Shown: in pieces, positions 1-919 of the stretch
Layout of the letters: every line of letters begins with the position of its first letter
Numbering within the stretch: the first letter of the stretch is position 1
Assembly: GCA_037443035.1 (NCBI GenBank)
Contig: JBBIPC010000021.1
Span: 1 to 64,000, forward strand
DNA from: Chthonomonadales bacterium
Lineage (GTDB): Bacteria > Armatimonadota > Chthonomonadetes > Chthonomonadales > CAJBBX01
DNA: 64,000 nt
Reading direction: 5' to 3'
Translations under genes and position numbers: made by a program
Notes under the pieces: generated by a model
Told to the model about the DNA's origin: nothing
The model's database searches: none
Seen by the model: only the letters and a program-made list of their open reading frames with translations

Positions 1-155
1 CGTCCCGAAGGCGTTCGGGAAAGTCAGCGGGGGTTTAGCTCAGTTGGGAGATCGTCCCGAAGGCGTTCGGGAAAGTCAGCGGGGGTTTAGCTCAGTTGGG
101 AGATCGTCCCGAAGGCGTTCGGGAAAGTCAGCGGGGGTTTAGCTCAGTTGGGAGA
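1..155 (+). repeat. Perfect 52-bp tandem repeat (about 3 copies, cut by the window edge) derived from tRNA-Ala, containing the palindrome TCCCGAA-GGCG-TTCGGGA
   Basis: Unit CGTCCCGAAGGCGTTCGGGAAAGTCAGCGGGGGTTTAGCTCAGTTGGGAGAT is at 1-52 and 53-104. The third copy (105-155) merges into the intact tRNA. Hairpins are at 3-20, 55-72 and 107-124. Confidence 0.95.
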
Positions 156-208
156 GCGCTTCCTTTGCACGGAAGAAGTCAGCGGTTCGAGTCCGCTAAC
201 CTCCACCA
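133..208 (+). tRNA. tRNA-Ala(UGC)
   Basis: Cloverleaf with acceptor GGGGGTT/AACCTCC and the G3:U70 alanine identity pair. Anticodon arm is CTTCC-TTTGCAC-GGAAG, T-arm is AGCGG-TTCGAGT-CCGCT, and CCA is encoded. Confidence 0.97.
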
Positions 209-247
209 AATCAGGTAGAAAGGGTCTCGCGCGTCTCTGTGGCGCAG

Positions 248-919
248 TCACATCCTACGACGGCGCCATAGAGCGAGTCCCCCTAGCCCGAGCAGTACGG
301 GTAGCTGCAGGAGTGCAGGCTCCGGCACGGGGTTGGCATCGCGCAGGAGGAAGTTCGGGCCGAAGTAGCCCCACCGTTCCGCGTGCGTCCAGTCAGGATA
401 CCTCAGCGTGCCGTCCGCGATTGAAGCCACCGCGGGTGTGTCCGCCCAAGCGATCGAAGGATGGACAGACCAGCCTGGCGGAGGGTTCGGTGAGGCGTGG
501 TACGCCCAGTACTTGTCCGCCATGACGGCAGCGATCCGGTAGTCGACGTCTGGCAACAACGTGATTGGTGTGAGAAGATCCCGGTACCGGAAACCTGAAA
601 TGAGGGTGTCGCTCGGGAATACAACTGTGGAAACGAGAAGGTTACCGGAGGGGTCCCATATGCCCACGGCATGGCCAGTGGAGCTGAGACCCGCAAAGTC
701 ATACGCTCCAAGGCCAGTGATCTCTACAGGCGACAGCACGTTGAAGCTGTAGCCTACACAGGCCCCGGGGTCTTGCTCCACTGTGTTGAGCGAAGAGAAA
801 CCGATAGCCGGGAGATCAGCCTGTCCAGGCGCCGATAGCGTAAGAAACAGAAACCCTCCGATCAGCAGCGAAAGAATCCGGCAAGGATCGGCGGCCAGCG
901 GCGTCCGTCGTCTATGCAT
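248..919 (-). CDS. PEP-CTERM sorting-domain surface protein (possible DUF4082-like beta domain)
   Basis: N-terminal signal peptide. C-terminal VPEP, hydrophobic helix and WRRRR tail. GYSFNV...ITGLGAYD...VGIWD pattern. Confidence 0.85.
   Translation of the reverse strand: MHRRRTPLAADPCRILSLLIGGFLFLTLSAPGQADLPAIGFSSLNTVEQDPGACVGYSFNVLSPVEITGLGAYDFAGLSSTGHAVGIWDPSGNLLVSTVVFPSDTLISGFRYRDLLTPITLLPDVDYRIAAVMADKYWAYHASPNPPPGWSVHPSIAWADTPAVASIADGTLRYPDWTHAERWGYFGPNFLLRDANPVPEPALLQLPVLLGLGGLALWRRRRM

Follow-up and report, generated by a model that had tools for sequence, protein, structure and literature searches.

Among the described systems that come closest to the locus reported here are the Ssn nucleases, single-domain GIY-YIG proteins with NTS/SRM repeats which, according to the main text of PMC11893778, cut single-stranded DNA near their own hairpin, are encoded by a small gene with a short hairpin on either side, an IS-like layout, and have hairpin copies that also occur without the gene. 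SegB of phage T4 is the product of a free-standing GIY-YIG gene in a tRNA cluster, which spreads itself together with tRNA genes and cuts double-stranded DNA at a 27-bp site containing a T-loop motif during phage co-infection (abstract of PMC2330249). Partial tRNA copies in direct repeat with an intact gene are known from integrative elements, which, in the available part of PMC9897764, leave one such fragment, located at the distal end of a large island. The GTAG and CGTC families of REP/REPtron sequences are described, in the available part of PMC3733652, as dispersed extragenic palindromes of 20–40 bp that form tandem groups, and the string ‘GIY’ occurs 0 times in that text. The best solved-structure relatives of the nucleases discussed below are Slx1-like/UPF0213 GIY-YIG proteins (PDB 1zg2 and 1ywl; E values of 8e-14 and 2.4e-11, respectively), and the available part of PMC1564403 describes no association of these proteins with tRNA genes.

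The window analysed here, a stretch of 64,000 nucleotides, opens with a perfect tandem repeat of period 52 (positions 1–155, 3.0 copies, 100% matches according to Tandem Repeats Finder), which runs straight into an intact tRNA-Ala(TGC) gene at 133–208 on the plus strand, called by both ARAGORN and Rfam and representing the sole TGC copy in the assembly. The units of this array are partial duplicates of the adjacent tRNA-Ala gene in which the anticodon arm has been replaced by a conserved hairpin. Each unit is identical to tRNA positions 1–26 except for G24T, continues with an 18-nt hairpin with a stem of 7 bp, which substitutes for the 17-nt anticodon arm (159–175; tRNA positions 27–43), and ends with AAGTCAGC, a copy of positions 44–51, the GG that follows being common to the next unit. 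Two units on the plus strand are complete, one at 29–80 (5′ tRNA part at 29–54, hairpin at 55–72, 3′ part at 73–80) and one adjoining the intact gene at 81–132 (81–106, 107–124 and 125–132, respectively), and they are preceded by a partial unit at 1–28 (unit positions 25–52), which consists of CG, a hairpin at 3–20 and the copy of 44–51 at 21–28. As the window starts at base 1 of its contig, at unit position 25, the copy number and the upstream DNA are absent from the assembly. The hairpin at 55–72, whose TCCCGA/TCGGGA stem is common to at least 120 loci, has a predicted DNA folding energy of −6.4 kcal/mol compared to −1.8 kcal/mol for the native anticodon arm. The earlier note had described truncated tRNA-Ala copies in tandem with a swapped anticodon arm, and the repeat and tRNA calls, together with the alignment of the unit to the tRNA, bear this out. 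The ‘TCG for GCG’ block that it reported is a real difference but amounts merely to the single substitution G24T, while its exact variable-loop match and GG microhomology hold in the window but not in the relative sampled by sequencing run X1, in which the last unit is altered at 128, 130 and 132.

The units are called by neither ARAGORN nor Rfam, possess no T loop and no 3′ acceptor strand, and thus lack the canonical features of a tRNA (a cloverleaf with a 7-nt anticodon loop, a T arm and an acceptor stem). In the interval 1–1200 Rfam returned nothing but tRNA at E values of up to 5, and no promoter-like site was found on the plus strand. Within the 3.76-Mb assembly the exact 18-mer is confined to the array, and tRNA-Ala(TGC) is the only one of 48 ARAGORN calls to be accompanied by such partial copies. 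A short CCCGA..TCGGG hairpin, which may be a chance occurrence, overlaps the 5′ end of a tRNA-Pro(CGG) gene on another contig (C7:57049).

A scan of species-representative genomes for a D-arm followed by TCCCGA-N2-12-TCGGGA yielded at least 120 loci in many phyla, so that the palindrome–tRNA chimera, which the earlier note proposed to seek elsewhere, is not a one-off. Going by record title, those among the matches listed belong mostly to Bacteroidota, with others in Ignavibacteria, Balneolaceae, Calditrichaceae, Chloroflexota, Patescibacteria, Nitrospirae, Verrucomicrobia, Acidobacteria and Fimbriimonadaceae, and comprise 80 loci with long flanks and 40 short loci. A tRNA was regarded as cognate when its 5′ identity was 20/26 or more, and an ARAGORN call that included the stem did not count as ‘intact’. 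On this basis, and among the matches listed, an intact same-strand tRNA accompanies 64 of the 80 long-flank loci and a cognate one 54, while 26 of the 40 short loci have a cognate tRNA, giving 80 cognate loci in total, in 68 of which the copy resumes at position 44. The long-flank cognate loci among the matches listed (n = 54, not independent as 20 of these are Lys-TTT) resume at 44 in 46 cases, at 35 in five, at 43 in one and nowhere in two, and the corresponding value at position 44 for the short cognate loci among the matches listed is 22/26; the search pattern partly fixes the 5′ junction and leaves the 3′ junction and the acceptor-strand identity free. The intact tRNA lies downstream of the copy, as it does in the window, at 49 of the 54 long-flank cognate loci, and the swap is seen at 11 tRNA types, in both cases among the matches listed. 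A tRNA-Gly GCC sub-type (L037, L055, L080, L089, L108 and another three among the short loci) has the hairpin in place of positions 27–34 alone, and the tRNA copy picks up again within the anticodon loop; of the two junctions, only the 5′ one is fixed.

The palindrome had been called foreign, which is true of its stem, found in none of the native anticodon arms (0/80, among the matches listed), but less so of its loop, since many Lys loci keep the host anticodon there, although the window hairpin does not. Among the matches listed, 35 of 72 rows have the host anticodon within the loop, compared to a permutation mean of 13.4 and with eight rows that resume inside the loop set aside; outside Lys this applies to 5/32 rows among the matches listed, and T-runs are common anyway. 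A scan of viral sequences gave two matches, both of which are ordinary tRNA-Lys genes, indicating that the pattern can yield false positives at Lys.

A same-strand GIY-YIG gene of approximately 85 codons was found at 29 of the 80 long-flank loci, and at 20 of the 43 loci with 600 nt on both sides, among the matches listed, employing a profile seeded from the same loci on which it was run; the remaining 51 of the 80 show no such gene. All profile matches (39/39) are on the tRNA strand, Pfam GIY-YIG was recognised in five of five linked proteins tested, and GIY-YIG was found at none of 29 ordinary tRNA loci of relatives, these controls not being taxon-matched. NCBIfam assigned no family above cut-off to four linked nucleases. 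Across eight aligned linked nucleases a Tyr, a Gly, an Arg and a Glu position are invariant, and we take these to be catalytic. Relative to the intact tRNA, the gene is downstream at 19 loci, upstream at five and unplaced at another five, and 13 of the 19 downstream-gene loci have a hairpin where the gene ends, followed by a T-loop in 10 (all among the matches listed). The full cassette consists, in order, of a hairpin-plugged 5′ tRNA copy, the intact tRNA, a single-domain GIY-YIG gene of approximately 85 codons and a hairpin-plugged 3′ tRNA copy, and a complete example is present at tRNA-Val in genome G408 (L193). The earlier note suspected that the array had been left behind by a palindromic element that is associated with tRNA genes and linked to a small nuclease, a view supported by the swap at 11 tRNA types and the nuclease at 29 of 80 loci among the matches listed. 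Hairpin-plugged copies together with a GIY-YIG gene apparently constitute an undescribed class of tRNA-gene cassette, as no published account of this arrangement was found in titles and abstracts, a body of text that leaves the subscription literature mostly outside, while the supplements of PMC11893778 could list such loci.

Several cassettes elsewhere depart from the simple layout. Two to three tandem copies of the right-hand unit, made up of the nuclease gene and the hairpin-plugged 3′ half of the tRNA, are present at L042, L058, L059, L062, L069 and L199. Genome G410 harbours such nucleases at four tRNA genes, Pro, Ser, Asn and Lys (L192, L196, L199 and L200), and its hairpins are also found in the variable arm, the T arm or the D-arm region, the anticodon arm therefore not being the sole plugged arm. 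The cassette at L106 (Nitrospirae) is flanked by ORFs at 826–1188 and 1554–1883, which in our judgement resemble a HicA/HicB toxin-antitoxin pair.

Regarding the relationship to Ssn, the tRNA class shares the single-domain GIY-YIG protein of about 90 aa flanked by hairpins, which the window locus itself does not display, and the occurrence of geneless hairpin copies. The SRM motif, in contrast, matches none of 138 chimeras and does not occur in window positions 1–260, and it is absent from the GIY-YIG loci (0/29), while two NTS-type control loci match. In a nuclease tree based on only 87 columns, in which N. meningitidis SsnA itself was left out, nine Ssn-type proteins (cd10448) form a clade with 100/99 support and all 30 tRNA-linked proteins fall outside it; two of the nine have SRM flanks and the other seven are taken by us to be Ssn-type on the basis of motif. 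Four proteins in the same tree, which we presume to be UPF0213-like, branch apart from the linked nucleases with weak support (82/77). The lack of SRM matches (0/138) and the separate clade argue that the tRNA-linked class is not a member of Ssn, and the hairpins described here sit in tRNA anticodon arms, whereas the word ‘tRNA’ occurs 0 times in the main text of PMC11893778.

The cassettes also differ from SegB in being chromosomal and in keeping an intact tRNA beside the gene, and hairpin-plugged tRNA copies are not part of the abstract of PMC2330249. Classical homing on a plain tRNA gene fits less well, since 24 of the 29 nuclease loci among the matches listed retain an intact tRNA next to the gene. 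Compared to the fragments left by integrative elements, the copies described here are adjacent to the intact gene, have positions 27–43 exchanged for a foreign stem that is conserved, and are tandemly amplified. Neither an integrase nor an island separates the partial copies from the full tRNA, the hairpin lying 8 nt from the tRNA in the window and 23–112 nt from it in 45 left copies among the matches listed.

The array in the window represents a common state of this class in an unusually compact form. Of these 45 left copies directly before a tRNA (among the matches listed), 23 are geneless with at least 500 nt seen downstream, 17 have a gene and five are too short to judge. Repeated copies are likewise frequent among the matches listed, with two or more at 34/120 loci and three or more at 18/120, and arrays of three to nine copies, including interior ones in a 1.68-Mb contig and a 6.67-Mb chromosome, occur both with and without a nuclease gene; their period is at least 67 bp elsewhere among the matches listed, compared to 52 bp here. 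In the window, the nuclease gene and the right-hand hairpin copy would usually start in the short trailer at 209–247, yet both are absent from 209–1500, and the downstream site is marked as empty by an unrelated neighbour, a 223-aa ORF on the minus strand (248–919) with a weak DUF4082 match and a C-terminal tail that we assume to be PEP-CTERM-like. A strong extended sigma-70-like promoter (11/12) precedes this ORF at 998–1026 on the minus strand, facing the tRNA on the opposite strand.

We consider it probable that the array is the left-hand scar of a selfish tRNA-gene cassette which lost its nuclease, a scar that local recombination then likely amplified. An exchange between the two 3′ halves of the tRNA would remove the nuclease gene together with the right-hand copy, resulting in the present layout, while further left units would arise if the 5′ halves crossed over unequally or slipped. 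As for the spread of intact cassettes, the tRNA-linked nuclease may work like Ssn: by this analogy it would recognise the hairpin in its single-stranded form and introduce a nick next to it, and repair through tRNA homology would then spread the cassette, a route to which we would give slightly less than an even chance. More tentatively still, the cassettes may represent a minimal class of mobile element, composed of a GIY-YIG nuclease of approximately 85 aa and an arm hairpin, which would move by tRNA homology, without integrase or transposase, between tRNA genes and between phyla; the window would then be its most compact amplified end, possibly situated in an rRNA precursor and possibly with its nuclease in the assembly gap. 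If mobile, these would be among the smallest elements, residing in the most conserved bacterial genes, and would provide a role for a large group of uncharacterised stand-alone GIY-YIG proteins as well as account for one recurrent source of aberrant tRNA calls and of contigs that break at tRNA genes. Each linked protein is paired with a predicted substrate, which permits a direct in vitro test and could yield new hairpin-specific nucleases. Being nuclease-less, the present locus adds modestly to this, through the shortest-period array, its persistence in two related organisms and a predicted folding cost to the sole tRNA-Ala(TGC).

That the array is an assembly artefact was a concern, given that it sits at a contig edge, that its copies are 100% identical and that none of the sequencing runs examined contained the source organism. 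X1 is an independent run with an approximately 92%-identical relative of the source organism, not the source organism itself, and one 17.6-kb contig of this run spans 94–1500 with 110 other letters. A 61-nt record spanning 57–117 has a depth of 187.9, compared to 37.7 for the flank (about 5×), so that the relative would appear to carry roughly five or more units, a rough estimate as contig depth is no copy number. A 427-nt record of single depth (32.5) meets the array at position 53, which is unit position 25, and reaches about 369 nt beyond the junction; the same phase marks the contig start here, pointing to a left array boundary at this position in both organisms. The unit differs from that of X1 at 5/61 nt, comparable to the flank (110/1408), and the array has been kept in two organisms about 8% apart. 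Runs X2, X3 and X5 had small word shares, with coverage essentially of the tRNA alone. A unit with its own changes and raised depth in the X1 relative, together with the interior arrays in long contigs of other genomes, leaves an artefact hardly credible, and the copy number, of which three are displayed, is the sole unreliable part of the assembled array.

The assembly does lack tRNA-Ile(GAT), which implies that some piece is unassembled, and no contig end of this genome could be joined upstream of the array, nor was any trace of tRNA-Ile found. At relatives’ Ala(TGC) loci (20 examined, L019 being dropped as an Ala-GGC gene), tRNA-Ile lies just upstream in 16/19 and a 16S end within 480 nt before the gene in 10/19, and the pre-Ile DNA of the same-genus genome G001 matches the 16S spacer of the present genome at 21/22 nt. 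This gene order and spacer match suggest that the array probably lies within a 16S-Ile-Ala unit. At L005, L010 and L014 the rRNA spacer of several relatives contains a 70-nt tRNA-Met(CAT)-like call between the Ile and Ala tRNAs. The last 900 nt of contig C20 of the present genome contain a 16S rRNA 3′ end whose tRNA-free spacer leads into an unrelated ORF, a layout which suggests unlinked rRNA genes plus a second, unassembled 16S-Ile-Ala copy.

None of the 19 relatives’ loci, that of the same-genus genome included, has a hairpin within 300 nt of Ala(TGC), and a phylum-wide pattern search matched 2/401 genomes, namely the present one and a chance match inside a coding region; the array is thus either a recent, lineage-restricted gain or rarely assembled. 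A metagenome scan for the window’s own junction returned 36 loci with no close relative of the window, six of which were recognised by eye as further tRNA chimeras (L164, L165, L166, L171, L172 and L182), and none of these six gave a GIY-YIG match.

The missing upstream DNA leaves room for a second reading, in which the cassette is still complete and a GIY-YIG gene in the unassembled gap between tRNA-Ile and the array drives, or has driven, the amplification. The gene is upstream of the intact tRNA in 5/24 placeable loci among the matches listed, at other loci a hairpin copy directly follows the nuclease gene end, and the X1 record that joins the array at unit position 25 continues for approximately 369 nt past it; the Ile–Ala spacers of relatives are only 6–171 nt long, and the lack of tRNA-Ile(GAT) attests to the unassembled piece. 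The 369 nt of X1 may, however, include tRNA-Ile and the spacer, with little room for a gene. The common position of the gene is downstream (19/24 placeable loci among the matches listed) and this position is empty here, which also renders doubtful the expectation in the earlier note that any gene would lie upstream. Profile and Pfam searches detected no linked-type GIY-YIG nuclease in the assembled genome, the one Pfam match being a 624-aa frame which is presumably UvrC, while 68 genomes of the class gave 11 GIY-YIG matches, none tRNA-linked and all of other GIY-YIG types lying away from tRNAs; nor did the metagenome scan provide a close relative covering the gap. We therefore regard a hidden gene as unlikely and prefer a scar of a cassette, with the proviso that the connection between this locus and a nuclease is drawn from other taxa and that, with the upstream DNA missing here and approximately 369 nt lying beyond the array in X1, gene loss is probable rather than certain.

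Location within a 16S-Ile-Ala precursor would also allow the units to be kept for an RNA role, whereby the co-transcribed units would act as competitors for the acceptor stem and either tune the processing of tRNA-Ala or serve as decoys for it. In this context, native acceptor-stem pairing is predicted to drop from 0.98 with no unit to 0.17–0.37 with one to five upstream units, which suggests that such units compete for the 3′ acceptor strand of the native tRNA; the proximity of 16S ends in 10/19 relatives, the G001 spacer match and the persistence of the array in two organisms accord with this. Against it, a lone unit cannot form a T arm or an acceptor stem (z = −1.16), the unit diverges from that of X1 at the rate of the flank, the array is absent at all 19 relatives’ loci, and equilibrium folding leaves out co-transcriptional folding and tertiary structure, so that retention for such a role appears highly improbable.

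The origin of the hairpin itself bears on the remaining alternatives. The present genome contains a REP-like family of 36 copies with fixed ends and interchangeable inner hairpins (e.g. C11:38380–39000, C23:6950–7560 and C13:13350–13650), often as inverted pairs and as composite units at contig ends, for which no matching nuclease gene was found in the assembled genome. The TCCCGA..TCGGGA stem is the inner hairpin of 12 of these 36 copies, which offers a possible local source of the hairpin and counts against a cassette scar. It could thus be argued that a local recombination accident placed an inner hairpin of this family in a duplicated 5′ half of tRNA-Ala and that slippage then amplified it, without any tRNA-targeting element, and the 23 such stems genome-wide, compared to about five expected, as well as the restriction of the copies to one of 48 ARAGORN calls, are compatible with that. 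The exact 18-mer is nevertheless found in the array alone, and both junctions (after 26 and before 44) match 68 of 80 foreign loci among the matches listed, a register that chance would not reproduce, so that an accident is largely refuted and in our view very unlikely. One REP-like inner 18-mer is the hairpin of the Bacteroidota tRNA-Gly chimeras L043 and L061.

The earlier note had suggested, as one option, spread by an HUH/RAYT transposase, and indeed the hairpin has the size of a REP and a single RAYT-like gene is present in the genome. This proposal gained no support: no RAYT or HUH match was obtained at the 80 long-flank loci among the matches listed, employing one RAYT query and an HUH motif scan of limited sensitivity, and there is no GTAG tag at the hairpin. 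CGTC does overlap the hairpin 5′ end, but CGTC REPs are without a dedicated transposase in the available part of PMC3733652, and, as opposed to the dispersed REP/REPtron sequences described there, the hairpin has a fixed position inside a tRNA copy and no RAYT association. Given the GIY-YIG association, a REP/RAYT product is refuted for the class, and for the array we attach next to no probability to it. The RAYT-like HUH transposase gene of the genome (L215, C13:74145–74864) is followed by GTAGGGGC-type palindromes, which differ from the repeats of the array and represent a separate repeat system.
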